IMG/VR virus record: IMGVR_UViG_3300027971_000050
Direction: 5' to 3' (one strand)
Source: an uncultured virus (IMG/VR IMGVR_UViG_3300027971_000050)
Lineage: Duplodnaviria; Heunggongvirae; Uroviricota; Caudoviricetes
Length of the DNA: 64,000 bases
The notes beneath the pieces were generated by a model, which saw only the letters and a program-made list of their open reading frames with translations, was not told the DNA's origin and made no database searches. Both the position numbers and the translations under genes were made by a program. This document shows, piece by piece, positions 4,572 to 23,008 of the stretch. Numbering within the stretch: position 1 is the stretch's first letter; every line of letters starts with the position of its first letter.

Positions 4572-4583
4572 TGGGCGCTCCTA

Positions 4584-5282: not shown

Positions 5283-5371
5283 GATAAAAATCCTTATGCA
5301 AAAGAGCTTTTACCAATCGTTGCATCGTCTGCTGGGGCAGTGGCGGTAAAAGCAATCACCCAGATGTCGGC

Positions 5372-5399
5372 AATATACATGATTTGTGTAGAATGTCAA
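5372..5399 (-). promoter_or_regulatory. Sigma70-like promoter TTGACA-N16-TATATT for the 5282 operon; overlaps a divergent TAGAAT -10 for the HNH gene
   Basis: Minus strand reads TTGACA ttctacacaaatcatg TATATT. Plus strand has TAGAAT at 5389-5394, 6 nt before ATG 5401. Confidence 0.55.
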
Positions 5400-5400
5400 T

Positions 5401-5772
5401 ATGCCGTACAAAGATCCCGTAAAAAAGAAAAATAAACAGAAAGGGTATTCCAAAAAGCATTACGAAAGTAACGCAGACAAAGTTAAAGCTGCAACCAAAA
5501 AACGCAGTAAAGCGTTAAAAGAAGACTGGAAAGAATTTAAATCCACTTTGTCCTGCCTTGAGTGTGGTGTTTACCACCCAGCTATTTTAGATTTTCACCA
5601 CATTGATCCTGAAATGAAAAACGACAGTGTGCACAAAATGATACAAGCGGGTAGCTATAAAAAAGCAATAGAAGAAGTTCAACAGTGCGTGGTGCTGTGT
5701 TCAAACTGCCATAGGGTTTACCACTACAACGAACGCAAAAGAGAAAAAGAAAAAGGGGCCGAAGCCCCCTAG
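5401..5772 (+). CDS. HNH endonuclease
   Basis: CxxC...LDFHH...C..LCSNCH motifs; inserted opposite to the flanking late genes. Confidence 0.85.
   Translation: MPYKDPVKKKNKQKGYSKKHYESNADKVKAATKKRSKALKEDWKEFKSTLSCLECGVYHPAILDFHHIDPEMKNDSVHKMIQAGSYKKAIEEVQQCVVLCSNCHRVYHYNERKREKEKGAEAP
5750..5769 (-). terminator. Intrinsic terminator with cUUCGg tetraloop
   Basis: Minus strand GGGGC-TTCG-GCCCC followed by TTTTT, downstream of the acidic-protein gene. Confidence 0.8.
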
Positions 5773-5795
5773 TGTTCGCTATTTGCGAATAGCGA

Positions 5796-6179
5796 TTACT
5801 CGTCAATTTTAGTAATGACGTATGTGGTCACGGTAGAAGATTCGTCTTCTTCGGATTCATCTTCATCAGACTCTTCGTCTTCATCAGACTCTTCGTCTTC
5901 AACATACTCAATCCAGTCAGCAGACTCTTCGTCGTAGACATACCAAGTATCAATTTCTTCGTCGTACCAATACCAAGCATCGGTATCTTCATCATAAACG
6001 TAGTCATCATCTTCGTCTTCGTAAGACACTGCTTCGTAATCAGCAGCCCAACCATGTTCTTGCTGGAACGCAACGAACTCTTGAATGATTTGTGCTTTAT
6101 CAAAATCAGTGGTGTGGATGACTAATTTTTCGTCGTCTTCAAAACCCCAAACAGAAATATCAATTTCAACCTTGTACAT
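5796..6179 (-). CDS. Highly acidic protein with aromatic-acidic repeats (YVYDEDTDAWYWYDEE)
   Basis: Probable start MYKVEIDIS at 6179 after AAGGGG; the C-terminal half is D/E-rich. Confidence 0.75.
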   Translation of the reverse strand: MYKVEIDISVWGFEDDEKLVIHTTDFDKAQIIQEFVAFQQEHGWAADYEAVSYEDEDDDYVYDEDTDAWYWYDEEIDTWYVYDEESADWIEYVEDEESDEDEESDEDESEEDESSTVTTYVITKIDE

Positions 6180-6223
6180 TTTTAACCCCTTAAAAAATTG
6201 GTGCAGCCCAATGCCGCAAAACA

Positions 6224-6252
6224 ATCCTACGGAACCTCTATGACGTTTGCAA
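6224..6252 (-). promoter_or_regulatory. Sigma70-like promoter TTGCAA-N17-TAGGAT for the acidic-protein gene
   Basis: Minus strand TTGCAA acgtcatagaggttccg TAGGAT, directly after the capsid-gene terminator. Confidence 0.6.
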
Positions 6253-6259
6253 GGCTAAT

Positions 6260-6284
6260 AAAAAAGGGCCCCTTTTGGGGGCCC
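6260..6284 (-). terminator. Intrinsic terminator after the major capsid gene
   Basis: Minus strand GGGCCCC-caaaa-GGGGCCC followed by TTTTTT. Confidence 0.8.
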
Positions 6285-6310
6285 CCATTTGGTTATTTAA
6301 AACCAAATTA

Positions 6311-7222
6311 TCAGAACGAACCAGAGGAACCAAAAACACCCAATGGATCAGAGAACCCGAACGAATAACGTTCACGGGCTTTGTAACGCACGTTGCCGGT
6401 ATCAAAGTCGCCGTCCATGCTGTTAGCCAGCGGAGTACGAACGAACATTTTCAAACCGTTAGGTACGTCTGTCGTCAAGAACCAAGCATTGGTGTCTGTC
6501 AAGTAGTGGTTGACAGTGTAGCCTTCAGGGATTGAACCGTTATTCTTGATTGCGTTAATGTCGTTGTTGTTTGTACCAACGCGCAACTCAGTTTCGAGCA
6601 AGCGGGTAGCAACGAACATCAATGCAGGCGGAATAATCAGCTTGCGTGGTTTAGCGGCGATCAACAAGCCACGCTCATCAGTCCAAGCAGCAATACCAAT
6701 CACGGCGGCTTCCAAAGAAGTCTCGTTCAAGTCGGCTTGAGTAGCAGGAGTGTTGGCGTTGACGCCACCGTTAATCAACGGGTGAGAAGTGCTGAACAAA
6801 GGTACGCCATCACCACCAACGAATTGAGCGGAGAAGCCGTTGTTCAAAGTTGCTGCACCTTTGACCTGTTTGGTGTATGCCATTGCACGAGCCAGACCTT
6901 TGGTGTAGCGAGCAGACAAAGAGTCGTAGAGGTTATCTTCAACTGCTTCTTCTGTGATCGCAAAGCCCAAGGCAATGGTTTCGTGGTTGTAGCGTGCTGT
7001 AAAAGCTTCTTGTGCATTGTCATAAGCGATGGCTGAGCCCTCGTTCTTAACAGGTGCAGCAGAGAAACCTGAAAGTTTCGTTTCTTCTTCAAAAGAACGC
7101 TCAGAGGTTTCGATTTCATAAATTTCTTTATGTTCTTCACCGTAGCGAGCGTACTCCAAACCAAACAATGCGTTCAGTCCGGGAAGGAGTTCCTTCAATA
7201 GTTGTGCGCGTGAAATAGCCAT
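6311..7222 (-). CDS. Major capsid protein
   Basis: MAISRAQLLKELLPGLNALFGLEY...GDFDTGNVRYKARERYSFG, recognised as a capsid family; strong RBS; followed by a terminator. Confidence 0.9.
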   Translation of the reverse strand: MAISRAQLLKELLPGLNALFGLEYARYGEEHKEIYEIETSERSFEEETKLSGFSAAPVKNEGSAIAYDNAQEAFTARYNHETIALGFAITEEAVEDNLYDSLSARYTKGLARAMAYTKQVKGAATLNNGFSAQFVGGDGVPLFSTSHPLINGGVNANTPATQADLNETSLEAAVIGIAAWTDERGLLIAAKPRKLIIPPALMFVATRLLETELRVGTNNNDINAIKNNGSIPEGYTVNHYLTDTNAWFLTTDVPNGLKMFVRTPLANSMDGDFDTGNVRYKARERYSFGFSDPLGVFGSSGSF

Positions 7223-7234
7223 TTAAGTTACTCC

Positions 7235-8077
7235 TTAGACTGCTGTGGCAGCGTAATACTCATGGATACCAAAGTTGATCTTGACGAGCATCTCTGGAAT
7301 TTGAGTAAACACAATAGTTGAACTGGAAGGGATAGTTGTTGCTGTCAATCCCAATGAAGTTGTTGCCACGTTGATAGTGATAGAGGTTGTACCTGCTGCA
7401 TAGCCTGAAGTCACAAACGAGCCCGTACGGACGATCTGACCGTTGGAAGCCACATAAGAAACATCGGAACCTTGCAGAATAGCACTTGGCAAACCAGAAC
7501 CGGTGAGGGTAATGGTAGTGCTTGAAGAACTACCTGTTGCAGACACAGGAGATGCTGTATCAGGCACAACACCAACAACGCGCATTGGGAAGGTGCTTGT
7601 AGTCAATGTAGCTGAATACAACAATGCGTTTGAGGAGTTACCTGTCGCAGTGCTACCAGCAGTGTTAATCATTTGGTAGTTCTGACCGACCATGGCGTAG
7701 CTGCCAGATGCGACTGTTGTACCAGATGAGCAAACGACTGCTTTGAACACAGTGTCAGGATCGTCACAAACAATAGCGACAGCGTCACCAGCCAGCGTAC
7801 CGCCGGGCCAGTATTGAGCAAATTGCTTTTGCTTGGTCAATGGGTTTGTGTAAGAACAACCCAAAAAGACACCAACCATTCCGGATGAGCCACCGCCGGT
7901 GGAAACAGCCAAACGTTGAGCAAAGCCTTGAGCCACTTTGACGAAATCGCCATAGTAAATGGTTGTTGCTTCACCATACTGAATAGGTACTTCTCGGGTA
8001 GAACCCGCGAATACCTGACCTCCGATCAGATTGATCGGTTTTAGACCGTAGGGGGCCGAAACCGTGGGATAAGCCAT
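7235..8077 (-). CDS. Capsid-associated/decoration protein (putative)
   Basis: Immediately upstream of the capsid gene; APYGLKPI...GVFLGCSYT motif. Confidence 0.6.
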   Translation of the reverse strand: MAYPTVSAPYGLKPINLIGGQVFAGSTREVPIQYGEATTIYYGDFVKVAQGFAQRLAVSTGGGSSGMVGVFLGCSYTNPLTKQKQFAQYWPGGTLAGDAVAIVCDDPDTVFKAVVCSSGTTVASGSYAMVGQNYQMINTAGSTATGNSSNALLYSATLTTSTFPMRVVGVVPDTASPVSATGSSSSTTITLTGSGLPSAILQGSDVSYVASNGQIVRTGSFVTSGYAAGTTSITINVATTSLGLTATTIPSSSTIVFTQIPEMLVKINFGIHEYYAATAV

Positions 8078-8088
8078 TTAAGACTCCT

Positions 8089-8538
8089 TTATTTTGAACC
8101 AGAACCAAATCCGCTTCCTCTGCTGACTGTCGATTGTCTTTCGGCAAACAGCGGCATACGCGGGTCATTTTGTCGCATGAAATTATTGTCCACAGATTGA
8201 ATCTGGGCTTTATTCTGCTCTTCAAAGTACTCTTTGATGGAAGCGAGTCTGTCGGTTGGCATCTTGCAAAGCATGAGTCCACCAATTTCCACGTTGCCAT
8301 TAGCAGCACCTTCAAGCATAAGCTCAGGGTGATCTGTTGCCTTAACCGGTTCCCAGCCATCGCGCATCTTGCGAGATACGTTGGTCGGGTCTGAAGCACC
8401 GAGAATGTGTGTCGCTATCCAGCGATACGACCATCCGGGTTCAGGTGTTGGATCGGGCAGAGTGCTCGATGGCTTATAGACATAACGAGCAGTTTTTTCG
8501 CGTGACACTACATCACGAGGGGTACGGTTTTCAGCCAT
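8089..8538 (-). CDS. Conserved head-module protein of unknown function
   Basis: YRWI...GWEPV...IGGLMLCK motif; head operon context. Confidence 0.65.
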   Translation of the reverse strand: MAENRTPRDVVSREKTARYVYKPSSTLPDPTPEPGWSYRWIATHILGASDPTNVSRKMRDGWEPVKATDHPELMLEGAANGNVEIGGLMLCKMPTDRLASIKEYFEEQNKAQIQSVDNNFMRQNDPRMPLFAERQSTVSRGSGFGSGSK

Positions 8539-9490
8539 TTGAATTCTCCAATTTTAAAACTTCAGCAACATATTTCTTAGGGTCAAGGTTGTACTTTTTA
8601 ATTAACGCCGCTTGAGTCGGAGTTAACTGTATCTTCCTTGTTCCAGTCGAACGAGTTGCCGGAGCAACTACTGCTGCCGGTTTTCTACTGGAAGTATCAA
8701 CCGACCTCGGCCTGTCTTCAGCACCACCGAAAACTTCGGGGAACTTTGACTTCACGCGAGCATCTATTTGCTCGAAATAATCATCACTGCGAGGATCGAC
8801 CCCGTTGTTGACTAGTTTTTGATGCAGCCCTAGTGCAAAGCTGGTAACTTCTTCGAACCCGTCTGAGCCAAACCACTGGTTTTTTGCTTGCCAGCGCAAG
8901 GTTTTTTCGTCAGCTCGCACCGGTTCGGATGCTTGTTGTCGCGGTTGTACCTCATAATTTTCGTTTTGTAAAGCGGGTGGACGAAAATTTTGTGCATTTT
9001 GCAACTTTAATTTAGCTTCAAATAGACTTTCCTGTGCGGCAAGGATGGCATCAGTGTCAAAAGACTCCTGTGCCGCCTTGTATTCCCGCCGAGCTTTGTC
9101 CAGTTCCGCTTCGGCTGCGTTCTTGGCCATGACTCCGTACTGTTCTGTACCAGTACTGACGTACTGTTTGAGCTTTTTATTTTCTTCAGACATGTGTTGC
9201 GCAATGCGCTCAAGCTCTTGTTTCTCACGTAACAAGGCTTCTTTGGCACGGCGCTCGTCATGACGTGCGTGTGTAAGTTCTTTGATTCGGTCTTGAACTT
9301 TTTTGCCGTACGAATCAATTTCTTCTTCGGTCGGGTCTTCTACTTCTTTATCAAGCTTGGGACTGAACCGATCATTTGGGGGTGTATCGTCAACGATTTC
9401 AATCTCAACATCGCCCTCTTCGTCTTGCAGAGCTACTTGATTTTTCTTTTCGTCTTCGATCTCGTCTGGGAATTTATATGCTTCTGGCAT
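8531..9490 (-). CDS. Putative scaffolding protein
   Basis: Acidic N-terminus, long coiled coil, position between portal and capsid genes. Confidence 0.65.
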   Translation of the reverse strand: MPEAYKFPDEIEDEKKNQVALQDEEGDVEIEIVDDTPPNDRFSPKLDKEVEDPTEEEIDSYGKKVQDRIKELTHARHDERRAKEALLREKQELERIAQHMSEENKKLKQYVSTGTEQYGVMAKNAAEAELDKARREYKAAQESFDTDAILAAQESLFEAKLKLQNAQNFRPPALQNENYEVQPRQQASEPVRADEKTLRWQAKNQWFGSDGFEEVTSFALGLHQKLVNNGVDPRSDDYFEQIDARVKSKFPEVFGGAEDRPRSVDTSSRKPAAVVAPATRSTGTRKIQLTPTQAALIKKYNLDPKKYVAEVLKLENSNG

Positions 9491-9501
9491 GTCGTCTCCT
9501 G

Positions 9502-9939
9502 TTAAGCGCGGGTTAAGCCACGGGGATCATCCACAACAGCATCCACTTGGTCATCATTGATGAGGCGGAACTCTTTGCCGTAAATCTTGAATCGCGTACC
9601 AGAATAGGTACGTACGAGTATGAAGTCACCTTCCTTGCACCACGCACCTGCGGGGAACTTGGTGGAGTCTTTATACGCGTCGGGGCCAACTTTCAATACA
9701 AACAACACCGTGGTGGCGTGCTCTTCTTGACGCATGGTGGCTGTGTCGCGCACAAGGTCTAGCTCCGTACCAGCAATCTTTTCAGACACTGGGGGAACTG
9801 CGCACAATATTTTCCATCCCGTAGGAGTAGGAAGCAGTGTGGCTTTTTCATTGTCCGTTGCGTCTTTGGGAGGCGCGTCTAGTTGTATAACTGCATCAGG
9901 CAGGGCGTACTGCCCCGGTTCAAGAAGTATTTCACTCAT
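9502..9939 (-). CDS. groES: Phage GroES/Cpn10-like co-chaperonin
   Basis: PTGWKIL...VLKVGPDAY...CKEGDFIL..YSGTRF...EFRLINDDQVDAVV fits Cpn10; probable start MSEILLEPG at 9939. Confidence 0.8.
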   Translation of the reverse strand: MSEILLEPGQYALPDAVIQLDAPPKDATDNEKATLLPTPTGWKILCAVPPVSEKIAGTELDLVRDTATMRQEEHATTVLFVLKVGPDAYKDSTKFPAGAWCKEGDFILVRTYSGTRFKIYGKEFRLINDDQVDAVVDDPRGLTRA

Positions 9940-10126
9940 TGGATTTTTCCACTTTCTCAGCAAGGTCAAGGAGATGGCGCTCTGCGATGGCTAGACCCTG
10001 AATAGTCCCGCAAAGTTTTTGATACTCTTCAAAAGTGCGACATGCCCCACCAGCGCAATCATCTGCATAATTGTTCATGTCGGTGCGTAATTTTTCGCGC
10101 AATACGCGTGCGAAGTCTTGGATCAT
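9932..10126 (-). CDS. Small conserved head-module protein
   Basis: FEEYQKLCGTIQGL motif; overlaps both neighbours. Confidence 0.65.
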   Translation of the reverse strand: MIQDFARVLREKLRTDMNNYADDCAGGACRTFEEYQKLCGTIQGLAIAERHLLDLAEKVEKSNE

Positions 10127-12576
10127 TTAGTTGGTTTCTCCCTTTGTTGGTCGTTCTTGTGTTGCACAGCTTGTTTAATCAAGTCCATGCCCATTTGCTG
10201 ACGCTGGCGCTTGAGCGAACCAGCTTCAGACATTGCACTGTTTTGTTCCGCGTGCTTTTGCGACTTAAGTTGACCAGCCTTGGCCATTGCATCAACTTGA
10301 AGTTTTTTGTTCTCTATGCTGAGCTTGCCTTCGATTTCTTGTTTCTTAAGCGCCAGCTCTTGCATTCTGATTTGCAAGTCTTGCTGTTGCATTTGAAGCA
10401 CAGGGTCTTGAGCTTGTTGTTGAGCTTGTTGTTGAGCCGCTTGCTGTTGGTTTTGCTGAAGCACTTGCTGAGCGGCTTGCGCCATCATTGCTGACAACTG
10501 AATTTCTATCTCTGGTGGCAACTTCTCATCTTCAGGCGGCAGCGGCATACCCATCTGTTGTTCAATCTTCTGGCGATAGGCAAAGCCTACGTGCTCTGCA
10601 ACGTGAGCCATCATTGCCGCTTGGATCTGCGGAGCTTTAGGGTTCTGGCCAACCAACTGCATGACTATCGGGTCTTGCATTGCCATCATGTGCACTTGTA
10701 TATGTGACTGGTGGTCTTGGTAGAAGAACGCTTTGAGTGGCTCCAAGCGCAGGGCCGCCATGTTCTCAGACACAGGATCTTTTGGTTTCTGGTCATCCGG
10801 CAAAGGCACAAGCTTGTCAGCATCCTTGATACCCAACACCGCCAACATTTGCCTGTGAAGCTGTGGCAAGTCGTAAATATCTGGAGCCATCTGCGCCATC
10901 TGGATCACAGCTTGGTACTGCACAACGCGTTGACTCATAGTCGCTGCGTTTGGATCGCTCACAGGGATGATGTCTACGTGGTCGTAGTCTTCTTTCTTGG
11001 CCTTGCGGGTGGCTTCAACCGGATCGTAGTCATAGTCAGGGTCGGTGTAGTCGCGGATGATCGCGGCCAACAGACGCAGTTCTTGTTTGAATGTGTAGTG
11101 CAGACGGGCTTGTACCGCTGACATAACTTTTAGCTGGCGCTCCAAGAGAGCGAGTGTCGTACCCACAGGGGCTTGGGCAGACATGTCTGACACCTTCATG
11201 TCAGCAGTGGCGGCAAACCTACGGCCTTCATCCACGATCTTGTCCATCAACCCAGACAAGACAAGGCTTGGTTCTTTATATGGCAGTGGCAGGATGCTGT
11301 CGCGCAACGCACCAGAGCCAATATCTACATCGCGCCATTCTCCGGGTGCAATCGGTGTGTCGTCTCCCTTGATGCGCATGCCACGGGATTTGAGTCCCCC
11401 GGGAAGATTTGAGAGCGTACCCGCGTCGATAAGCTGGCGCATGAGGCTGGTAGCAGATTTGGCATACCCCCCAATGAGATGGAAAAGGCCAAAGCCGTAC
11501 GCTCCAAAACCCGGGATGTATTGATAGTGAACAAAGTGTTGTCGTTTAAGCTCAAGTGGATCGTCCTGTTCCCAGTTTCTACGGATGGCCAGAACAGCGT
11601 CCGTGCCTTTTATTAGGGTAACTACGTATGGCCTTGTGATTCCTGTTGGCTCTCCGTCGTCACCTTTGTCTTCATCGCCCTTTAGCACCAAGTCAACATG
11701 GCACTCATACAGCGTGTATCTGTCGTCGTTCAGATCAGAAAAACCTGTTTCTTTGTCTTTGGCTTTCTTGATGTTGTCTTGTTCTTTGGTCGGGTCAGGC
11801 AACTCAATGTCACGATAGAAACCTGCTTGTTGTAGCTTGACAATCTCGTTTTTTGTCTTGCGCATGACGTGCGTCAGGCGGTAGCAGGTATCTAAATCAG
11901 ACGTGCCATATGGCAGGAGGATGTCCTCTGCCGGTACAAATATTGAAATCTGACGGCCAATGTTGGGGTCGTAGTATACCTTCTTGAACGCTGAACCTGT
12001 AGCCGGGAGGCTCCACAACATGCGCTCATGCTCAGGGCGGAACTCGCGCATGACTTCTGTCAGCTCGTAGTTCATGTCTTCTTCAACACGCCCAGCAGCT
12101 TCTTGTTTCTCAAGGGTTTCTTTACCCAGAATTTTTGTACGTACAGGCCCTTGCGCTGGGAATGTCTCGGTGATTGTCTCTGACTGGAAGCGCACCACAG
12201 CCTCGGTAATCATAGGGTGGAACACGCCCGACGCACCGTTCCACGGTTCAGTGCGCTCCTCATACTGGAGGCCAAGGAGTTTGAGTCCTTCCGTGTACGC
12301 CTTCTCCCAGTCCTTGCGTGATTGCTTGTCTTGGTCAATGTCGCCTTCTAGTTCAGATGCCATTGACATGATGTCATCTTCTTCCAGTGTCTCGGCTAAG
12401 TTCTCGTCAAAGGTGTCGTCCTTACCTTTACCAATACTGATCTCCAAGTCGCCTGCGTGGATGTTTACCGCTTCAGGATCAACAATTTCAATCTCAATGG
12501 GTTCCTCATCCTGCGCCATTGACTCCATACCTTGTGGTTGTTGGAACAGAGCTTTGTCTATATTGGTGGCCATCAT
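10123..12576 (-). CDS. Portal protein (P22-like, with Q-rich C-terminal barrel)
   Basis: 817 aa directly after the terminase; GSAFKKVYYD and PGFGAYGFGL motifs; helical Q-rich tail. Confidence 0.85.
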   Translation of the reverse strand: MMATNIDKALFQQPQGMESMAQDEEPIEIEIVDPEAVNIHAGDLEISIGKGKDDTFDENLAETLEEDDIMSMASELEGDIDQDKQSRKDWEKAYTEGLKLLGLQYEERTEPWNGASGVFHPMITEAVVRFQSETITETFPAQGPVRTKILGKETLEKQEAAGRVEEDMNYELTEVMREFRPEHERMLWSLPATGSAFKKVYYDPNIGRQISIFVPAEDILLPYGTSDLDTCYRLTHVMRKTKNEIVKLQQAGFYRDIELPDPTKEQDNIKKAKDKETGFSDLNDDRYTLYECHVDLVLKGDEDKGDDGEPTGITRPYVVTLIKGTDAVLAIRRNWEQDDPLELKRQHFVHYQYIPGFGAYGFGLFHLIGGYAKSATSLMRQLIDAGTLSNLPGGLKSRGMRIKGDDTPIAPGEWRDVDIGSGALRDSILPLPYKEPSLVLSGLMDKIVDEGRRFAATADMKVSDMSAQAPVGTTLALLERQLKVMSAVQARLHYTFKQELRLLAAIIRDYTDPDYDYDPVEATRKAKKEDYDHVDIIPVSDPNAATMSQRVVQYQAVIQMAQMAPDIYDLPQLHRQMLAVLGIKDADKLVPLPDDQKPKDPVSENMAALRLEPLKAFFYQDHQSHIQVHMMAMQDPIVMQLVGQNPKAPQIQAAMMAHVAEHVGFAYRQKIEQQMGMPLPPEDEKLPPEIEIQLSAMMAQAAQQVLQQNQQQAAQQQAQQQAQDPVLQMQQQDLQIRMQELALKKQEIEGKLSIENKKLQVDAMAKAGQLKSQKHAEQNSAMSEAGSLKRQRQQMGMDLIKQAVQHKNDQQREKPTK

Positions 12577-12582
12577 TTATCC

Positions 12583-14121
12583 TTAGTAGTACGCCGCAGA
12601 CCGGCGTTTGAAAAATCGGGGTTCATCTGGTTCATCCGTGTCAATACGGATAAAACCACCTTGTCTGACTCGCAGCAGTGCTTGGGTGGTCGTGTCAACA
12701 TAGTCATCGTTCTCTCCCACAGGGAAAGACGCAACCTCTTCTATCACTTCGCGTGCCCAGCGTGTGTCAGGTGCCCACACCAGACCAGATGTAAACATGT
12801 CGGCTACGGCGTTGACACGCACCATCTTATCGTTTCCACGGCTCGGTGTAAATTCCTGCACGGGGATGCCCATGTTGCGTAACTCTTGGATCAGTGGCCC
12901 ACCAGCGGCTTTCTTCTCCACAATGAACGCATCAGGCTCCCACTCTTTGTAATGTTTCAAAGCAATAGTTTTAAGTTCTGGAAATGGCATCCTGTCTTTA
13001 AAACCATCCAACAAGATTACTTGCGCCGCGTTGTTCTCTTCCTCGTTGTAGAACACACCCCACGTTGTGCACGCGCTGTAGTCAGATGTGCTCTTGGTCT
13101 CGTGCGCCGTATCCCAGCTCTGGATTATGTACTCACAGTCTGGTGGTGTATCGCTTGGCCAGATGCGCCAGTGCTTTCTGGCAATGATTGCTGAGTTGTC
13201 CGAGGTAGGCTGCTGCATGTACTGGGCGTTCCAGTACTTGGGATCCATTGCAGACTTGGCACTTAGTAAAGACTCCAGCGGCCACTGCTCTGGCCAGAGC
13301 GACTTCTCGTTGTCCGTTCCTTCATGCAGGATGGCTGGTAGCTCTACGATCTCCCATGTGGGGGAGTCTGGGTTCTTTACTTGGTAGTCGATCAAACGTC
13401 CGGTCAAGTCCAGCTTACCCCAACGCGTCATGATGACAATGATCGCACCGCCCGGCATCAAACGCTGGAGTGGGCCTGTTTGAAACCAACTCCACGCTGT
13501 ATCAAACGCCAGTCGGCTGTTTGCCTTTACGTCTTGTTCTGAGTGTGGGTCGTCGATAACGAATAAATCAGCGCCGCGACCGGCAAGAGCACCACCAACA
13601 CCAGCAGCGTAATACTGGCCCCCAGCAGCAGTACTCCACTTTCCAGCAGCCTTCTGGTCATCTGCAATAAGAGTTTGAGGAAATAGTTCATGGTATTGTT
13701 CATCATCCAGTAAGTTACGAACCCGACGACCAAAGTCTTCGGACAGGGAAGCTGTGTGCGTTCCCATGATGATCTTCTTATTAGGGAAATTACCTAGAAA
13801 ATATGCGGGGAACAGATAGCTGGAAAACTCAGACTTACCCATACGCGGCGCAATATTGATAATTACTCTCTTCTTTTCTCCTCTGATTACCGCATCGAAG
13901 ATGCGTGCCAGCTTCCTATGATGCGGCCCAACTTTGAATCCGGGGTATACATGCTTGGCAAACTCCAGCATGTTGGTGCGTCCAGACACCAGCTTATATC
14001 TCTTCTCCCGTTCTTCTAACATATCCATGAGTTCAATCTTTTCCTTGAGACTCATAGTGGGGAGGGCACGTTGAATTGCCTGTATTTCCCCAGTGTTTAA
14101 CGTTAGACTTTCAAGATTCAT
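12583..14121 (-). CDS. terL: Terminase large subunit
   Basis: Walker A-like APRMGKS, Walker B FVIDD, MTRW, nuclease SWDTA and DDYVD motifs. Confidence 0.95.
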   Translation of the reverse strand: MNLESLTLNTGEIQAIQRALPTMSLKEKIELMDMLEEREKRYKLVSGRTNMLEFAKHVYPGFKVGPHHRKLARIFDAVIRGEKKRVIINIAPRMGKSEFSSYLFPAYFLGNFPNKKIIMGTHTASLSEDFGRRVRNLLDDEQYHELFPQTLIADDQKAAGKWSTAAGGQYYAAGVGGALAGRGADLFVIDDPHSEQDVKANSRLAFDTAWSWFQTGPLQRLMPGGAIIVIMTRWGKLDLTGRLIDYQVKNPDSPTWEIVELPAILHEGTDNEKSLWPEQWPLESLLSAKSAMDPKYWNAQYMQQPTSDNSAIIARKHWRIWPSDTPPDCEYIIQSWDTAHETKSTSDYSACTTWGVFYNEEENNAAQVILLDGFKDRMPFPELKTIALKHYKEWEPDAFIVEKKAAGGPLIQELRNMGIPVQEFTPSRGNDKMVRVNAVADMFTSGLVWAPDTRWAREVIEEVASFPVGENDDYVDTTTQALLRVRQGGFIRIDTDEPDEPRFFKRRSAAYY

Positions 14122-14710
14122 CTGGGGTAGCCGGTAAGGGGTTGCTTACTTCTATGTCTTCAATTGGTTCAGCGTCGGTCACGTTCATGAACTTGGCGAG
14201 CTTGTCCTTGAGCTTCTTGTCGATTTCTTCGTCGGTCAGGTCTGTTTTTTTGACTTCAATCTTGTCGGTGAACAATCCAACTTCCGTGACCTTGCCCAAC
14301 AATCCCAACGCTTTTAGTCGGATATTGGCGTTGGGGTTTTCGCATTCTTCCAACAGTTTGGCCACTGTGTAGCCACGTAGCTCTCTAGCCTGATGCACAA
14401 ATTCCCAGTCATACGCTGTCAGCATACCCACCAGATGTTGCACTGCAACAGGCGTTTTGATCTGGGTTAGATGTTCGTGCGTGATTTCTGCTGGCGCGGA
14501 AGAGATGAGGTTTGTAAAAGATGCGCGTGCCGCTTGGACTTCTGCTTGAGTGACCACTGTATCTGTGTCAGCCGCACCCAACCCTTTCAGCCACTCGGTT
14601 GTATTAACCTTGGCGTCGATCACATCCGCCGGATGTTCTTTTTCAAGCGGCGTAGGTTTACCGGAGTAATCAATTACTTCGGGTTCAAATTCAATTAAGT
14701 GTTCTAGCAT
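14111..14710 (-). CDS. Putative terminase small subunit
   Basis: First gene of the late operon, overlapping terL; RLKALGLLGK..VGLF helical motif. Confidence 0.6.
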   Translation of the reverse strand: MLEHLIEFEPEVIDYSGKPTPLEKEHPADVIDAKVNTTEWLKGLGAADTDTVVTQAEVQAARASFTNLISSAPAEITHEHLTQIKTPVAVQHLVGMLTAYDWEFVHQARELRGYTVAKLLEECENPNANIRLKALGLLGKVTEVGLFTDKIEVKKTDLTDEEIDKKLKDKLAKFMNVTDAEPIEDIEVSNPLPATPDES

Positions 14711-14725
14711 CAGCGCATAAGTCCC

Positions 14726-14754
14726 TTGTACCTGCGATGCGCGGAGTGTATACT
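14726..14754 (+). promoter_or_regulatory. Sigma70-like promoter TTGTAC-N17-TATACT driving the putative sRNA
   Basis: TTGTAC at 14726-14731, 17-nt spacer, TATACT at 14749-14754. Confidence 0.7.
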
Positions 14755-14760
14755 ACTTTT

Positions 14761-14879
14761 AAGTGATGCGGCAAGTTGCGAATTGGCCTTTGGCCAACCG
14801 CAACAGCAGTTGCCGGTTGCTTCTCCTCGGTTGTTGGTTCGACCGTTCAGCCCCTGTCAGAAATGCCGGGGGTTTTTTT
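14761..14879 (+). ncRNA. Putative anti-Shine-Dalgarno small RNA with three hairpins and an exposed seed GUUGCUUCUCCU
   Basis: Upstream promoter; hairpin 1 at 14769-14815; unpaired 14816-14827; hairpin 2 at 14828-14845; GAAA-loop terminator hairpin plus T7 at 14849-14879; no credible ORF. Confidence 0.7.
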
Positions 14880-14887
14880 ATGGATTG

Positions 14888-14905
14888 TTGTCCAGTGTTG
14901 GACAA
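14888..14905. promoter_or_regulatory. Operator-like palindrome TTGTCCA-GTGT-TGGACAA
   Basis: 7-bp inverted arms; related sites at 23299 and 31930. Confidence 0.55.
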
Positions 14906-15102
14906 GAGATTTTATAATTTTTTATAAAAATTTATGGGGGTGGTATTAAGTATTACAAAAGTGCTGAGAATGGGTGGGGAATAGTGTTCACACAACTAGC
15001 TACCCGTTAACACATATATGGGTGATGCCCCCATGGTGGGGTCGAAAGTTCTCGGATATTCACGCTTCGAGACAGCTATGCGAACCATCTGCTTACCCCT
15101 CA

Positions 15103-15111
15103 TGGTAAAAT
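15103..15111 (+). promoter_or_regulatory. Extended -10 promoter (TG-G-TAAAAT) for the first early gene
   Basis: TGGTAAAAT followed by a 10-bp 5' hairpin (15120-15142) and the RBS at 15174. Confidence 0.45.
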
Positions 15112-15185
15112 AGCATCAGCGGTTGGGAAAGGTTCTCAGCCGTACAACCCAGAGAGAATTTCTCTCTCACACTAGGAGAAGCAAC

Positions 15186-15644
15186 ATGAACGTGAAAGCA
15201 AACACAACCCTGTCATTCGATGAGTTCGCTAAGTCAGTTGGTAAGTTCGGCAAAGAATTGCAACAGTCAGCTAAGCCATTGGCTGACGCATACGCAAAGG
15301 CTACGCCTGAGCAACAGAAAGACCTTCGTGCTCGTTGGATGCTCAATCACCTTATCGGGCAAGGCTACACCAATGCCAAAGCCATCATCGAGACGGGCAA
15401 AGGCAAAGGCGCTAAGCCTGACCATGTCAAAGCCATTGACAGAGCATCATCTGACTTTACCTACAACATCAAGCAAGGCAAGTCAAAGCCACTGCCTGAG
15501 TCTGATGCTCGCAAGGTTCGCATACCTACTGACCGCAAGGATTACCTGTTCGCTGTGCTTGATGAGTGCTATGACGCTAAGTCACGCAAGCAACAGATTG
15601 ACATGGCTATCGCTGACTTGCGTGCTCTCAAAGCTCGCCTGTAA
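15186..15644 (+). CDS. First early gene; basic protein of unknown function
   Basis: Start MNVKANTT after RBS AGGAGAAGCAAC; flanked by palindrome copies 1 and 2. Confidence 0.8.
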   Translation: MNVKANTTLSFDEFAKSVGKFGKELQQSAKPLADAYAKATPEQQKDLRARWMLNHLIGQGYTNAKAIIETGKGKGAKPDHVKAIDRASSDFTYNIKQGKSKPLPESDARKVRIPTDRKDYLFAVLDECYDAKSRKQQIDMAIADLRALKARL

Positions 15645-15671
15645 CCCAGAGAGAATTTCTCTCTCGAATCT

Positions 15672-16237: not shown

Positions 16238-16258
16238 CTCAGAGAGAATTTCTCTCTC

Positions 16259-16634
16259 AGTGGGTAAAATGATGCAAAAAAGTGTTGGAATCTTAGCTTC
16301 CGTGATTTATCCCAGTGTGTTGAATCTGGTACAGCGTTTCAACCAGCAACGGCGGGGATTTTGGCTAGCACTGTCCTATCTATCTATCTTTATAAATATA
16401 TATTTATATATAGAAGGCTTTTATTTTATGTGCGTGTCTTGTCCCCGCCCTTCCCGTCTGTTTTGTTTTGGTTTGTTTGGCTTAGGCTATTGAAGACTTT
16501 ATTTTTGATAGATAGTTGGACATTCACAAACAAAACTCAACAACCATGCGGGCTAGCGACTGTCCCAAATTCTGCACACCCTGTTATAATGCTGGACACT
16601 ATCCACTTTTTTCATTTCGAAAGGACATAATCAC
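16259..16634. other. Non-coding AT-rich region, candidate replication origin; extended -10 TGTTATAAT at 16582-16590
   Basis: AT palindrome TATAAATATATATTTATA, inverted TGTCC..TATCTATC / GATAGATAG..GGACA arms, several TGTCC boxes. Confidence 0.4.
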
Positions 16635-17348: not shown

Positions 17349-17449
17349 ACATTTCTTTTTTTCGAGAGAGAAATTCTCTCTCACTGGTCTGCGGAGATTG
17401 GGCTATGCCGCTGACCATCCCGATAGTAGCCTGAACAAAGGAGAGCAAC

Positions 17450-19864
17450 ATGATTTGGAATTACAGAATGGTGAACTGCCCATCAACCAATGGCGGGCAA
17501 GACTGGGTTCAATTAAAGGAGGTGTATTACGAAGGCGAGGTGCTAACGCCTGTGGCGTATTGCGACCCGCCCATGCTTGGCAGTGAGACTGTCAAAGGTT
17601 TAGAAGAGACGATGAAGATGTTGAACAGCGCATTGAATCGCCCCGTGTTACATGAGAACGATTTCAAAGAAGGAGAAACAAAATGAAAGTGCAAGTAATC
17701 CGTATCTATGGATACACAAAGAATCCGTTCGCACCACACGGACACAACCCTGAACCTCTTGATGAGGATGCGCTCATCCTGCCCAAGGGCTTGTCCGACT
17801 CTATGCGTGACGAGGTACTTGCCGAGATGTATGAACGCAAGCAGACGATAGGCTACATCTTCAACGAAGGGGAACGCATCGTTGGCGAGCATCGAGCCAT
17901 GACTGTGGTCTCGTACCGCACCCTTGAAGAGTTTGAGATGGGAGAAGTGCAATGACAAACGAGCAGTACAAATTTCCGTGCGAAGACCTAGCACACGCCA
18001 CATACAAGTGGGGCATTGAGTATTCCAACGATGAGGATGGTGATGAGGTTGTCCATGTCGAGTGGTTCACAACCGAAGAAGAACGCAACCAAGCATTAAA
18101 AGGAGAGGTGCAAACACCCGATTACACATTCAACGATTTATTCAAAGGAGAAGTGAAATGAGAGTAAGTACTGTGATGAAAGAAACGCTTAGCTACTTCG
18201 AAGAGGAGTTGATAGGCGTTGTGGAACGACTGCGCTTTGTCGCTAACAACATGGACGACATACGGGAACGCGACAACTGTTGCAAACAAGTCGAAGTGTG
18301 CATCAGCAAACTGCGTGATTTGATTAGAGAGACTGACTTGAAAGGAGAAGCATCATGAAAGCAAACCAAGTATTGAGCCATATCTTTTTGGCAATCTGTT
18401 CGTACAACCTAGTCGCATTTGGGTTCATTCAAATCGACATATGGGGCACAACGCCGCTGTGGTGTATGTGTGTAGTCATCGGCACGTTCATGCTTGGGTT
18501 CCAAGTGCGTAGCGTGTTGGCTAGAGGAGAGAGCAAATGAAAAGAGAAGAACTAATCAACGAGGTGTTAAACCAAATACTTCAAGACGTAAAGGACTTTG
18601 ACCTGACGGCTATCGAGGAACTCATCAAGGACATACCCGATACAACGCTGATGGCATACCTGCCCGAAGAAAAACAAGGAGAAAGCAAATGAGAGTACAT
18701 GAACTGATAGCGCTATTGAAAACAGTAGACCCCGAGTCCGAGGTGTTTGTGTGGGTAGACGGAGAACGACACCCCGTGACAGATATTGACCCAATCGACT
18801 GGTACGTAGACATCAACGCTGATACGAAAGAGAGGATGGAATGAAGTTAGTACACATACAACAAGCGTTGTTTGCAGCGTATGACATACGCAATGCAATG
18901 ACAACCGATGACATGTACAGACCAACTGAGGGAGAGAGCATAGGTGAGTGCTTAGCTGAAATCATCAACACACTGGAGAACATCGAAGCAGAGATAGAAA
19001 AAGAAGTTAACGAGTACTGCGAAATCTTTGACACCAACCACGGAGAACTTAAATGACCAAACTACCAAACATACATCAACACTTCTTTGCCTCTAGTGCG
19101 TTTGACTGGTGTGCATCGACACCAACACGAGACCTGCGTGAGGTCATCTACATCATGGAGAAGTACAACCACTCTTACAACCTGTACCTAGTACCTGTCT
19201 CGCACGACACACCATACGAGATTAACTTCTATCAACCCCAAGTTGAGGGCACGCAGTGGCTTGGGTTTTTTGAGGTGAACAAGGGAGAAGTGAAATGAAA
19301 CACGCACAAGCAATAAAGGACTACGAACAAGCAATCAAGAACATTAAGTTTCCAACAGTGGAGATAACGATAGGAAGATTCACTGTGCCCTATACATGGC
19401 TACCTTGGATGGGGGCTTTTAACTTAGGCGCTTGGTGTGAAGACGAGCCAGACGGGTTCGATGACGCACCCGAACATAAGCACTTAGAGAAAGTGAGTGA
19501 CGCACTCATAGCGGGGCATAGCGATGAGGAATACATGGATGAGTTGATCGCTGCACTTGCAAGCAACCCATTCACAACAGAGGAGGACTAAATGAAATTT
19601 AGAGATGTACCCGATGCGGCATGGGATGCCGAGCCTACGCCGATACCAACCAAGACAGTGGTGTCGTATGACTGGGATGCACTGCGCTTAGTCCTTGAGA
19701 CTCAAGGCTTTGTTGTCATCGAGTCCGAAGTAACACGCCGCTTGAGCACAGGCGCAGAGGAATCCGTACTGGTCAAAATGTTCAACAGTTACATGAGGAC
19801 TACTAAGAAAACAAAACTGTTCACTCGCAGACTCAGCAAGACACGCTGGCTATGCACAACCTAA
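17450..19864 (+). CDS. Cluster of 11 small, mostly translationally coupled hypothetical ORFs: 17450-17686, 17683-17955, 17952-18161, 18158-18358, 18355-18540, 18537-18692, 18689-18844, 18841-19056, 19053-19298, 19295-19591, 19592-19864
   Basis: ATGA overlaps and purine-rich RBSs, mostly GGAGA(A)-type; 18537 and 18689 (51 aa each) were read by eye. Confidence 0.7.
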
Positions 19865-19971
19865 CAACGCAGGACTAATCATCCTGTCAACAAGTGAGAG
19901 AGAAATTCTCTCTCGCTGTATCGGCGTGTGTCTCACACACAAAACAAAACTAAATCAACTGGAGAAGCATC

Positions 19972-21798
19972 ATGAAAATTTACATGGTTTCAATCAACAA
20001 CGTAGACAATTCACGTTCGGTCAAGTATGTGTATATCAACGCACTCAACCGCTTTGCGGGTATGCGTATCACCAATCATTGTTATGGCAAGCTCGGTGTT
20101 GATCGTGCTCGTGTTAGTTACGATGACTGGGATCCACTGCCCAGACAACTGCGTGAGATAACTGTTAACAACTTACTAGACCTGCACACCATAGCTAACG
20201 AGTACGCACAGCATCTGACAGATTATTTCTCCGAGGGTACGCTTACGTACACGCTTGAGGAAGTGACTGGCGACTTGCGTCATTGGTTCAATACGTGGGG
20301 CTTGCCGTTTACCTTTCGCATATGTAGCTCAATCAGCGATAGTTTGGATACGGTGAGAAAGCGCAACAAGCTCAGGGTTATCGTGCGTGACATGGAAGAC
20401 CGATACAACAAGTTGTGGGGTAGCCGCCCTAACTGGCGTATCAACTACAGGGGTTCAACCTACCACAACGAGTGCGGGTTCAAGTCAGACAAAGTGTTCT
20501 GTGCAGATATGGGCAGGCTCATCGCTGAATCTATCAGGGATGGTGTGGACTCGTTCAGTCAGCCGTTCATGGAGGACTACGACACTGCCTCAAACCTACA
20601 TAACCGCATAGCCCAAGCCGCAAACGATGCGTTTGCTGGCAAGGTTGAGTTCGATCTCACTAATTATTACTGCGATCACTGGGACTTTCATAACAATGGT
20701 AGTGAGGTGCGTATCAGTAGAGGTAGCTATCGTACCTACTGCGATTGTTGTGTTCAGGACAACGATGTTGTCGTTGAGACCTATGACACTGGCATCTTGA
20801 TGGAACGTGAAGCGGCTTACTTTTGCGACAACAACGAGGAGTGGTACGAGCACGAGCCAGATGACCCCGAGTACGATGATGATAATGACAACGATGGGGA
20901 CAGCGAACCCGATGCTAGTTGCCTCATGTCTTACAGCGCCAACGTGCTTGACGTGCTTAGCAAGGACGAGTCGTTCGTAACGTCTCCGTTCGGTGAGTTC
21001 CATATGGGTGTCGAGCTTGAGCTTGTGACCAACGGGTTTGTCAGCGAGGCGGTCGATGATCTGCGTAGCCAGCTTGGTGAGGACTACATCATCTGTAAGT
21101 CGGATGGTTCGTTGCCTTCGGGCGGTGTCGAGATCGTCACTTCGCCTCGTGGTCTAGCCGAGCATATCAAACGCTTCAGTGACTGGAACATTCACAGCAA
21201 CTATCTTGCGTGGAACACAGGCAAGTGCGGTATGCACGTGCACATTGACTCTCGTGCGTTCACTCGGTTGACGCTGGGTAAGTTCATCGTGTTCATCAAT
21301 GACGCTAAGAACGCTGAGTTCATCCGCAAGATCGCAGGTCGTCATCCACACATCGACACTCAAGCTCAGACCTACTGTGCCGCCGAGGGGCAGGAAGTTA
21401 TCAAGAATCCATCCAAGGCACTCAAGGGCAAGAGCGGCAACCGCTACTACATGGTCAACACAACTTGCTTGCGTAGACCAGAGGCTGATCGCTTGGGTGT
21501 GCGGTATGTCGGTGAACGCAACTTCAACACCATCGAGCTTCGTGTGTTTCGTGCAACCCTCAAGCAAGAACGACTGCTTGCACAGATCGAGTTTACTCAT
21601 GCGGTTGTCATGTTCTGCCGTGTCGCCAGTATGCGTGACTTGGATGGCGTGTCGTTCATCAAGTGGCTCAAGACTATCGACAACCGCTACCCGCATCTGT
21701 CTGACTGGTATGGCATACGCCGCCGTGTCGGTGCTAAGAACTCAGCCCCTGCTGAGATCACCTGCGCTGACGTTACGCCTGCCCCTGTCTCTGCTTAA
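19972..21798 (+). CDS. Putative amidoligase (COOH-NH2 ligase superfamily)
   Basis: GVELEL, SDGSL, GVEIVTSP, CGMHVHI and TIELRVFRAT motifs; Cys-rich segment and acidic linker upstream. Confidence 0.85.
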   Translation: MKIYMVSINNVDNSRSVKYVYINALNRFAGMRITNHCYGKLGVDRARVSYDDWDPLPRQLREITVNNLLDLHTIANEYAQHLTDYFSEGTLTYTLEEVTGDLRHWFNTWGLPFTFRICSSISDSLDTVRKRNKLRVIVRDMEDRYNKLWGSRPNWRINYRGSTYHNECGFKSDKVFCADMGRLIAESIRDGVDSFSQPFMEDYDTASNLHNRIAQAANDAFAGKVEFDLTNYYCDHWDFHNNGSEVRISRGSYRTYCDCCVQDNDVVVETYDTGILMEREAAYFCDNNEEWYEHEPDDPEYDDDNDNDGDSEPDASCLMSYSANVLDVLSKDESFVTSPFGEFHMGVELELVTNGFVSEAVDDLRSQLGEDYIICKSDGSLPSGGVEIVTSPRGLAEHIKRFSDWNIHSNYLAWNTGKCGMHVHIDSRAFTRLTLGKFIVFINDAKNAEFIRKIAGRHPHIDTQAQTYCAAEGQEVIKNPSKALKGKSGNRYYMVNTTCLRRPEADRLGVRYVGERNFNTIELRVFRATLKQERLLAQIEFTHAVVMFCRVASMRDLDGVSFIKWLKTIDNRYPHLSDWYGIRRRVGAKNSAPAEITCADVTPAPVSA

Positions 21799-21826
21799 TC
21801 AACAATCAATATAAAGGAATCTCATC

Positions 21827-22948
21827 ATGTGTTTAATCATCACTGGCACTTCTGCCAAAATCCGCTCGACTCTTCTCGACACACACGCACTCATCAGCGA
21901 CATCTACACCAGTAATCCTGACGGCATCGGCATCATGTATGCAACGACCAAGGGCTTGAAGGTTGTCAAGGTATTGCCTAAGTCTCTCGCTGACGCAACG
22001 CAGTTCATTACCAAGTTACCCAACGATGATCGTGAGCTTGCGATTCACTTCCGCTGGACTACGCATGGTCATACCGATATGACTAACTGCCATCCATACG
22101 ATGTAGTCAATGGCTATATTGCAATGATGCACAACGGCGTGTTGCACACTGGCAATGCTGCCGACAAGTCTAAGTCCGACACATGGCATTTCATCCGTGA
22201 CTATCTTGCCAGTCCTGTTGCCGAGCATCCTGCTCTCGTGCACAACGAGAAGTTCCGAGATTTGCTTGCCGAGTTCATCGGTGACAACCGCTTCGTGTTC
22301 ATGGATGGTGACGGCAAGATGAGCCATGTCAACTATGACCAAGGTGTTGAGCACGATGGCTTGTGGTTCAGCAACACGTATGCGTGGAGACCTAGCCGAT
22401 TGATCCCGTCGTATCAGTACTCGACTAAGTATTCCCCACGCTACTACGACAGTATGTATGAGGACTACAAGTATGACAACTCATACGGCGGTTACAAGTC
22501 CCTGCCTTCCAACTCATGGAAGGATGAGGACAGTGCGTATGAGATCAAACCACGCAAGGTGTCAGCGCATGATCTTGAGTGGGATGAGGATGACTACGAG
22601 TTTGCTGATGACAACATTGACGGGTTTGTGATTGACTCTACTGACCTGATTGATATTGTCATGGGTGCAGATGTTGAAGCAGTGTCCGACTTACTAGAGC
22701 AGGCACCAGAGACTACTATAAACATCTTCTGCAATGTGCTGGCGTGTGAGCCAACCCAATGGATTAGGGCTGACAGTATGTCAGTGCTTGAGAACACCAT
22801 CTACCAAGCGTTCCTTGCGGGGGATATGGTTGCATTGCTCGATGCTGTCGATGCGGGGTTGCATGGCAACGTAGCTGACGTTGCTTGCTATTACCTGAAC
22901 TGGTCACACAAGGTGGGCGCTAGACCGATCCTGCCTGCAATGATCTGA
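21827..22948 (+). CDS. Class II (Ntn) glutamine amidotransferase
   Basis: N-terminal M-C, NPDGIG, HFRWTTHG, NCHPY, MHNG and SDT motifs. Confidence 0.9.
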   Translation: MCLIITGTSAKIRSTLLDTHALISDIYTSNPDGIGIMYATTKGLKVVKVLPKSLADATQFITKLPNDDRELAIHFRWTTHGHTDMTNCHPYDVVNGYIAMMHNGVLHTGNAADKSKSDTWHFIRDYLASPVAEHPALVHNEKFRDLLAEFIGDNRFVFMDGDGKMSHVNYDQGVEHDGLWFSNTYAWRPSRLIPSYQYSTKYSPRYYDSMYEDYKYDNSYGGYKSLPSNSWKDEDSAYEIKPRKVSAHDLEWDEDDYEFADDNIDGFVIDSTDLIDIVMGADVEAVSDLLEQAPETTINIFCNVLACEPTQWIRADSMSVLENTIYQAFLAGDMVALLDAVDAGLHGNVADVACYYLNWSHKVGARPILPAMI

Positions 22949-23008
22949 CGGGTGTCATGGCGAGAGAGAATTTCTCTCTCGCATTTTTTAAACTAAAGGA
23001 GAAATGAA

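Follow-up and report, generated by a model that had tools for sequence, protein, structure and literature searches.

What might a short RNA gene lodged between the late and the early genes of a phage be doing there? The question is raised by positions 14726-14879 of a stretch of DNA of 64,000 nucleotides (nt), hereafter the window, from an uncultured virus of the Caudoviricetes (IMG/VR record IMGVR_UViG_3300027971_000050), where such an element sits in a 475-nt divergent region that parts the first late gene (terS-like) from the first early gene. Temporal control in lytic phages is usually ascribed to transcription (sigma factors, activators, phage polymerases) and to a handful of proteins that regulate mRNA, T4 RegA and RegB among them. 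A sequence-only reading of this locus had proposed a small RNA (sRNA) that could silence the early and replication genes as a group by pairing with their ribosome-binding sites (RBSs), and our analysis of the window and its relatives leads to a narrower proposal. Judged from its natural sequence variants, the element is a genuine plus-strand gene for a structured RNA with an invariant block that exactly complements a private RBS tag, AGGAGAA(A)GCA. This tag stands before the start codons of some of the early and replication genes, a subset of them, and before no late gene. The reading toward which we moderately lean is that of a trans-acting anti-RBS sRNA that would repress this subset.

Transcription signals and predicted fold

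The element is predicted to comprise the following parts.

14726-14754, plus strand: promoter-like region as read from the sequence, with TTGTAC (-35-like, 14726-14731), a 17-nt spacer and TATACT (-10, 14749-14754)
14760-14879, plus strand: predicted sRNA transcript of ~119 nt (RNAfold; covariance model R1)
14761-14822, plus strand: hairpin 1, with a basal stem, middle stems and an optional tip hairpin (RNAfold, relatives)
14761-14767 (AAGUGAU) with 14816-14822 (GUUGCUU), plus strand: weak, G-U-rich basal stem of hairpin 1
14783-14797, plus strand: optional tip hairpin of hairpin 1, TTGGCC-TTT-GGCCAA
14818-14827, plus strand: invariant block, or seed, UGCUUCUCCU (alignment of 95 sequences)
14823-14827, plus strand: CUCCU, a single-stranded toehold in the predicted fold (unpaired probability at least 0.98)
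14828-14845, plus strand: hairpin 2, CGGUUG (14828-14833) with CGACCG (14840-14845) (RNAfold)
14849-14879, plus strand: rho-independent terminator, a GC-rich GAAA-loop hairpin (14849-14874) followed by T7 (14873-14879)

The promoter TTGTAC-N17-TATACT and the GAAA-loop/T7 terminator of the sequence-only reading are found where it had placed them, and both are conserved in all 98 full-length variants described below, the promoter boxes as TTGnnn-N16-18-T(A/G)(T/C)A(C/T)(T/A) and the terminator hairpin with a run of at least five T behind it. We infer that the transcript would start 6-8 nt past the -10 box and end within the U tract. The terminator, whose hairpin at 14849-14879 a terminator scan did not list, is conserved and covarying; the promoter boxes are conserved but fall below the sigma-70 threshold. 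That the promoter motif is common to other genes could be rejected, since it is unique in the window. Its spacer region (14735-14754) carries a CGATG box that is kept in nearly all clades, a few having CGTTG, CGGTG or CGAATG; this box exceeds what sigma-70 needs and may represent a regulator site or a constraint from the overlapping terS-like start region.

RNAfold assigns 14760-14879 a free energy of -50.1 kcal/mol (z = -3.39), which none of 200 shuffles equals, and reproduces hairpins 1 and 2 and the terminator at the positions originally proposed for them. The 12 nt at 14816-14827 had been described as unpaired, and this needs correction: only CUCCU (14823-14827) is single-stranded, while GUUGCUU (14816-14822) is paired with AAGUGAU in both the minimum free energy (MFE) structure and the ensemble. 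In single-sequence MFE folds of the 95 distinct RNAs, CUCCU is unpaired in 90 (median probability 0.99) and UGCU lies in a helix in 93. Unfolding all 12 nt is predicted to cost 4.5 kcal/mol, and the 12-base-pair (bp) duplex with the RBS of the first early gene is calculated at -19.3 kcal/mol.

Conservation and covariation among relatives

How widely the element occurs was followed through its neighbor, a terS-like gene of 199 amino acids (aa), for which IMG/VR holds 390 relatives (302 when a 60%-identical relative serves as a second query). We took 170 loci, some of which overlap on the same contigs, and a regular expression made up of the promoter, the seed motif and the T run matched the element in 161 of them and in the window, always singly and directly upstream of the terS-like gene. 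Of the nine loci without a match, eight offer less than 200 nt of flanking sequence upstream, and the last one (L125) was matched by a covariance model at 54.2 bits; the element is thus present once in every related IMG/VR locus with enough flank. Among the collected elements, 98 full-length variants and, at the level of the RNA (78-142 nt), 95 sequences are distinct. The covariance model, R1, which was built from 34 short variants, matched each of the 95 source sequences exactly once over 889 kb, all on the expected strand, and its sole match in the window (67.4 bits, E 7.5e-12) covers exactly 14760-14879 on the plus strand. It found nothing at E <= 0.01 in phages DSL-LC04 and HTVC027P or in a locus of a metagenome-assembled genome (MAG), its best values being a non-significant E of 0.12 in DSL-LC04 and 0.56 in HTVC027P. 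The sRNA family is common to a large clade of uncultured phages of ~60-67 kb and, from these model searches, seems confined to the clade that has the 199-aa terS-like gene.

Within the family, the seed columns GCUU(U)CUCCU are invariant in 95/95 RNAs, and the U directly before them is kept in at least 90%. Length variation arises through insertions in hairpin 1. Among these insertions is the tip hairpin GGCC-N3-4-GGCC, which is present in 26 of the 95 variants (loci L010, L015, L024, L037, L056-L070, L146 and L161/L162, and 14783-14797 of the window), is doubled in L010 and behaves as an optional or mobile insert.

A comparison of relatives for structural covariation had been put forward with the sequence-only reading as a means of checking it, and its outcome is positive. 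RNAalifold gave no structure on a plain MAFFT alignment of the 95 variants because insertions misaligned the helices, and a covariance-model alignment was used in its place. In this alignment, which is fitted to the model and biased toward structure, paired cells amount to 86.1% as against 72.0% in shuffles (0/500 of which reach the observed value), and the covariation score is 0.407 as against at most 0.141 when the partners are slid by 1-3 columns. Both sides change in 20 of the 29 pairs, including all 6 of hairpin 2 and 7 of the 9 of the terminator, 96.5% of whose cells are paired. Independent folds of single sequences return the three hairpins in 90 of the 95 variants. The basal stem of hairpin 1 forms in 80-94 of the 95; its changes affect the 5' partner only (G-U to A-U, U-G to C-G) and leave the 3' strand UUGCU constant, and this 3' strand is constrained by more than pairing. 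Hairpin 1 is rich in G-U cells (at one pair, for example, 49 G-U vs 45 A-U), and because each of them would turn into an A-C mismatch if the opposite strand were the RNA, the functional molecule is the plus-strand RNA.

The earlier view that the transcript holds no credible open reading frame (ORF) is upheld, there being no conserved reading frame on either strand among the 98 variants. A small protein-coding gene on either strand finds no support in a length that ranges over 78-142 nt or in substitutions that follow base pairing. It had also been pointed out that no ATG follows the seed motif as read on the minus strand; this is true of the window and does not extend to the relatives, 34 of 98 of which have such an ATG, with no conserved ORF behind it. 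A minus-strand leader peptide was rejected, given that in 58 of the 98 variants no start codon is found 4-10 nt downstream of the motif and that the others give ORFs of an erratic 4-31 codons.

These observations also bear on whether the motif acts as DNA or on the minus strand, be it as an inverted copy of the RBS cassette, as a decoy or protein site of the RegA/RegB kind, or as a relic kept by recombination, with the plus-strand RNA incidental or used in some other way, for instance on host mRNAs. The cassette is repeated through the early region, the minus-strand motif is followed by ATG in a third or so of the variants, as just noted, and T4 proteins read an extended GGAG site (PMC1702504). 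Such a role would nevertheless leave unexplained the plus-strand promoter, the terminator and the covarying helices with their G-U pairs. A conserved minus-strand ORF is lacking, and the block straddles a plus-strand helix (93/95) and the linker (90/95). Moreover, no candidate for an RNA-binding protein or nuclease was recognized among 37 early proteins, most of which are without a family. We consider this explanation quite improbable.

Complementarity to a tag on early ribosome-binding sites

What the plus-strand RNA might pair with is indicated by its invariant block. The 12 nt at 14816-14827, GTTGCTTCTCCT, are the exact reverse complement of 15174-15185, which adjoins the ATG at 15186, just as the sequence-only reading had it. 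Complements of at least 9 nt occur in the window at 15174, 18343, 19961, 23427, 26926, 29091 and 30328, and five of these seven are clear RBSs, belonging to the genes that start at 15186, 18355, 19972, 29105 and 30337. The candidate targets are the following.

15174-15185, plus strand: candidate target 1, AGGAGAAGCAAC, the tag in the RBS of the first early gene (ATG 15186), exactly complementary over 12 nt
18343-18352, plus strand: candidate target AGGAGAAGCA, before ATG 18355
19961-19969, plus strand: candidate target GGAGAAGCA, before ATG 19972 of an amidoligase-like gene
29091-29100, plus strand: candidate target GGAGAAGCAA, before ATG 29105
30328-30337, plus strand: candidate target GGAGAAGCAA, overlapping ATG 30337 of a SNF2-type helicase gene

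With up to 2 mismatches allowed, the 12-mer has 18 matches in the window, mostly directly before an ATG on the plus strand, where 5.67 (sd 2.29) are expected, and none of 100 shuffles reaches 18. A strand asymmetry is seen when the seed region of each phage is compared with its own early region. Over 80 non-redundant loci (435 kb), exact complements of at least 9 nt number 295 in the sense and 2 in the antisense direction; most of them directly precede an ATG, and single matches reach 13-17 nt in some phages. Complements of at least 11 nt, counted in the 31 loci whose early region is represented by at least 4.5 kb, number 105 in early sense sequence (287 kb), 0 in late sense sequence (207 kb) and 0 in early antisense sequence. 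The family thus displays two marks of a trans-acting sRNA, namely a conserved and accessible seed (the invariant block, with CUCCU unpaired) and complements to it at several unlinked translation-initiation regions beyond what chance would give.

The temporal classes differ in their Shine-Dalgarno (SD) dialect: early and middle sites (genes of 15186-36817) center on GGAGAA(A)G and late ones (genes of 3-14710 and 36940-63735) on (T)AAGGA, about half of the latter being without GGAG. In the window, gene starts from crude gene calls give mostly aaGGAGAAG(c/t)a-N-ATG for early and middle genes and tAAGGA-type sites for late genes, and there are 10 GGAGAAG-ATG sites in the 22 kb downstream of the sRNA. 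Because the seed extends into the spacer (GCA), it would read a private tag and not SD sequences in general.

A perfect 12-nt complement to the first RBS, carried by an element that lies upstream of the early genes and in the same orientation, could also be expected of a leader or attenuator of the early operon, with the conserved promoter as the main early promoter and the RNA as a terminated leader whose block would fold in cis, upon read-through, onto the RBS of gene 1 some 350 nt downstream. This possibility agrees with the promoter scan, which called no canonical sigma-70 promoter in the interval from the terminator to gene 1. However, the terminator, with 8-11 GC-rich pairs plus U5-U16, is a strong one, and no conserved antiterminator fold is seen; a TATAAT (14913-14918), a conserved palindrome and an A+T-rich tract suggest a separate early promoter; gene 1 differs among relatives, with only 14 related loci; and many phages have their best matches 2-5 kb downstream. 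An attenuator of this kind strikes us as very improbable indeed.

An arrangement in cis is conceivable on the other side of the divergent region as well. The sRNA lies directly upstream of the terS-like gene in all loci, its promoter-like region overlaps the translation-start region of that minus-strand gene (14111-14710), and its terminator, having no T run on the minus strand, could be read through by minus-strand transcripts. Since no more than 16 nt separate the terS-like ATG from the -35 box, the late promoter should lie within or beyond the sRNA gene, and the leader of the late mRNA would therefore be fully complementary to the sRNA. Either the sRNA or convergent transcription itself might in this way control late-gene expression; P22 sar and lambda OOP provide precedents for antisense control of a target. 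Yet the promoter scan located no late promoter or start of a late transcript, and a purely cis-acting antisense RNA needs no invariant block, because any sequence complements its opposite strand. It would remain unexplained why UGCUU(U)CUCCU is invariant while the rest varies, why this block mirrors early tags (105 vs 0) and why seed and tag change together as described below. Cis-antisense control of the late operon is the chief competitor of the anti-RBS reading, but as the main function of the element we rate it as unlikely. An overlap with the late leader, judged from the layout of the locus, is almost unavoidable and likely at least as a side effect, and it could coexist with action in trans. 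None of these three explanations accounts for the invariant block together with the specificity for strand and class (105 to 0).

Co-variation of seed and tag

If the block reads the tag, changes in the one should be accompanied by changes in the other. The seed exists in two forms, CUUCUCCU and CUUUCUCCU, and in 3/3 contrasts between sister clades, insertion of a U into the seed is accompanied by insertion of an A into the tag. The contrasts set the numbers of distinct GGAGAAG:GGAGAAAG RBS sites in clades with the CUUCUCCU seed against those in sister clades with the CUUUCUCCU seed; the ratios are 22:5 vs 5:17 in the first (p 5e-5), 3:2 vs 3:33 in the second (p 0.017) and 24:23 vs 2:9 in the third (p 0.09). 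When the loci are pooled, those with the CUUCUCCU seed (56 loci) have 0.28 GGAGAAG-ATG vs 0.17 GGAGAAAG-ATG sites per kb, and those with the CUUUCUCCU seed (24 loci) have 0.10 vs 0.60. The first 3 nt of the hairpin-2 arm likewise vary in step with the 5' context of the RBS in two classes (50% vs 0.7% and 26% vs 5.6%); this is not seen in most other classes, and the fine-scale co-variation is patchy. The expectation, raised with the sequence-only reading, that seed changes would follow those of the RBS consensus is borne out in the direction of the three sister-clade contrasts and only patchily at the finer scale.

Observations weighing against an anti-RBS role

A number of observations speak against the anti-RBS reading or against parts of it, and they concern the targets, the co-variation and the RNA itself. 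As to the targets, the tag is present on only a subset of early genes, and in the window phage an exact complement of at least 9 nt stands at the start of only 5-6 of the 39 called plus-strand genes, so that the sRNA mirrors a subset of the early and replication genes and not the whole class. Silencing of these genes as a group, as first envisaged, is thus not supported. Calculated duplexes are more stable with early than with late leaders (medians -15.4 vs -12.8 kcal/mol, p 2.4e-4). A generic anti-SD tail, however, shows this contrast too (p 7e-5), and the test is hence not specific to the sRNA. The tag, finally, could have another reader, for example a RegB-like nuclease.

With respect to the co-variation, one sub-clade with the short seed CUUCUCCU still favors GGAGAAAG sites. 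A tree of the neighboring gene from 31 loci implies ~5 changes of seed state, of which 2 fall on well-supported branches, and an independent-pairs test cannot reach significance because the supported changes are too few. When seeds were swapped among 17 seed classes, the own seed came first in only 5, 4 of these with ties, and in the largest class (7 loci) it ranked 12th. Concerted evolution of repeated cassettes could, moreover, mimic co-variation of seed and tag.

As to the RNA, the predicted fold pairs most of the 12-nt seed and leaves only CUCCU single-stranded, and the -35 box matches the consensus at only 3/6 positions, for which reason a sigma-70 scan did not call the sRNA promoter. The RNA is known from sequence: contigs from two sequencing runs, assembled from small shares of them, cover 14602-14752, 14852-14991 and 15168-15500, so that the RNA core lies outside; they miss 14772-14839 and are silent on expression.

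Relation to known RNAs and regulators

The original statement that the RNA belongs to no described family agrees with a search of the whole window against Rfam, which gave 0 matches at gathering thresholds. At E <= 10, positions 14700-15200 gave sub-threshold matches only, over the part with hairpin 2 and the terminator; c4 (RF01695) and IsrK were absent even at that level. Full-text searches of PubMed Central and bioRxiv, whose results were mostly judged at the level of the listing, brought up no description of such an RNA. By these comparisons, the sRNA appears to form a previously uncatalogued RNA family.

The c4 antisense RNA of phages P1 and P7 covers a ribosome-binding region, is processed from the transcript of its target and pairs through two segments with two target sites. 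Like c4 (RF01695) and the P4 CI RNA, the sRNA described here is a small phage RNA that is predicted to base-pair with the phage's own mRNAs. Unlike them, it has a promoter-like region and a terminator of its own and would not be processed from a target operon, and its candidate targets are many and lie in different transcription units; its setting shows no sign of immunity or lysogeny, and it also has one seed block where c4 has two. Membership in the c4 family was rejected on the grounds of the separate promoter-like region and terminator and of the one conserved single-stranded block.

Among bacterial RNAs, RsaE/RoxS, the CcsR or 'cuckoo' RNAs and AbcR act in trans on multiple targets, end in a terminator and expose a pyrimidine-rich motif that pairs with SD regions. 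The phage sRNA resembles them in its exposed pyrimidine-rich motif and its terminator and, as predicted, in a trans-acting role on multiple targets, whereas it differs in having a single linker block instead of repeated loops and in being encoded by a phage, with phage targets. A match to the Betaproteobacteria toxic sRNA RF02278 over 14820-14880 (16.5 bits, E 0.95) falls far short of the gathering score of 50 and was rejected; PMC4603805 describes those RNAs as toxic when cloned in E. coli and as having an unknown function.

In its logic the proposed system comes close to a third group. PMC1702504 describes the RegB/S1 site on T4 early mRNAs as an 11-nt sequence of GGA plus an A-rich stretch. 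The proposal shares with T4 RegB/S1 and RegA the class-wide inactivation of early mRNAs through an extended RBS signature, here the tag GGAGAA(A)GCA, with an effect that is predicted. The T4 effectors, by contrast, are proteins, and the candidate here is an RNA that would act by Watson-Crick pairing; the likeness is functional, with no homology.

Genome setting

The divergent region that holds the sRNA gene lies between blocks of genes arranged as follows.

3-14710, minus strand: structural (late) genes
10123-12576, minus strand: portal gene
12583-14121, minus strand: large terminase gene
14111-14710, minus strand: terS-like gene of 199 aa, without a family match and named from its position only
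15186-36817, plus strand: early and replication genes, including DNA polymerase, primase/helicase, SNF2 helicase and PD-(D/E)XK nuclease
36940-63735, minus strand: further genes after the early block
15150-15170, 15647-15667, 16240-16260, 17364-17384, 19896-19916 and 22962-22982: copies of a palindromic element described below

The window shows no DNA similarity to named phages by megablast or blastn, and the nearest virus record (G001) lacks the sRNA region. The closest large terminases of named phages, ~53% identical, are those of Pelagibacter phages HTVC027P and HTVC023P and of lake phage DSL-LC04. Among 37 plus-strand proteins scanned in the window, no integrase or repressor family was found, and no RNA polymerase or sigma factor was recognizable among these early proteins, most of which are without a family. 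A search of bacterial genomes for relatives returned one weak partial match, in a MAG, without any prophage copy. There is no evidence of lysogeny, of a carrier state or of immunity, and the suggestion that the sRNA might serve a carrier state or superinfection immunity accordingly finds no footing in the proteins scanned or the bacterial genomes searched.

Several features of the surroundings deserve mention in their own right. Directly 3' of the sRNA terminator lies a palindrome, TTGTCCA-N4-TGGACAA (14888-14905), which is kept in relatives as TTGTCCAACGATTGACA and is followed by a perfect TATAAT (14913-14918), an A+T-rich tract and a conserved TATGGGGGTGG box; the whole, 14888-14944, is from its sequence probably an early promoter and operator region. 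A second palindromic element, (C/G)AGAGAGAA(T/A)TTCTCTCTC, is repeated at six sites of the early region, mostly behind gene ends. With at most 3 mismatches it gives 9 strand-matches vs 0 expected, and its first copy stops 3 nt short of the RBS tag of gene 1; it may be an RNase III-type processing site, an operator or a promoter element. The amidoligase-like gene of the early/middle block adjoins a weakly GATase-like gene (19972-22948, plus strand). At the far end, a 3258-aa ORF (36940-46716, minus strand) has a C-terminal LPD38 domain (large polyvalent protein) and is presumably a virion-borne multi-domain protein.

Proposed mechanism and its implications

How might a trans-acting anti-RBS sRNA of this kind work? 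We envisage that the sRNA would be transcribed by the host RNA polymerase and that its CUCCU toehold would nucleate on the SD core of a tagged mRNA, whereupon the duplex would spread into the GCA spacer by displacing the weak, G-U-rich basal stem. The resulting duplex of 10-14 bp would out-compete the ~6-bp contact with 16S rRNA and so block binding of the 30S subunit, and the paired mRNA might also be exposed to RNases and decay. With rising amounts of the sRNA, expression of the tagged early and replication genes would be damped or shut off, and the late genes, with their AAGGA-type sites that lack the tag, would escape the sRNA. A more ambitious version, to which we subscribe only tentatively and with rather less than even confidence, holds that this one sRNA is the master off-switch of a temporal class in a lytic phage, that the private tag serves, apart from ribosome binding, only to be read by the sRNA, and that seed and tags co-evolve.

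Base-pairing sRNAs directed at SD sequences and phage RNAs of the c4 type are known; what appears to be new, on comparative grounds, is an RNA family whose proposed anti-RBS role, specific to one gene class, has good support. Environmental viromes contain the family in abundance, and its natural variants suffice for a rigorous study of co-variation. Should the proposal prove true, the pair of tag and sRNA would offer synthetic biology a compact and orthogonal control element, and the differing SD dialects of early and late genes within one phage would find an explanation. It would also mean that phages can encode a post-transcriptional timing circuit wholly in RNA.

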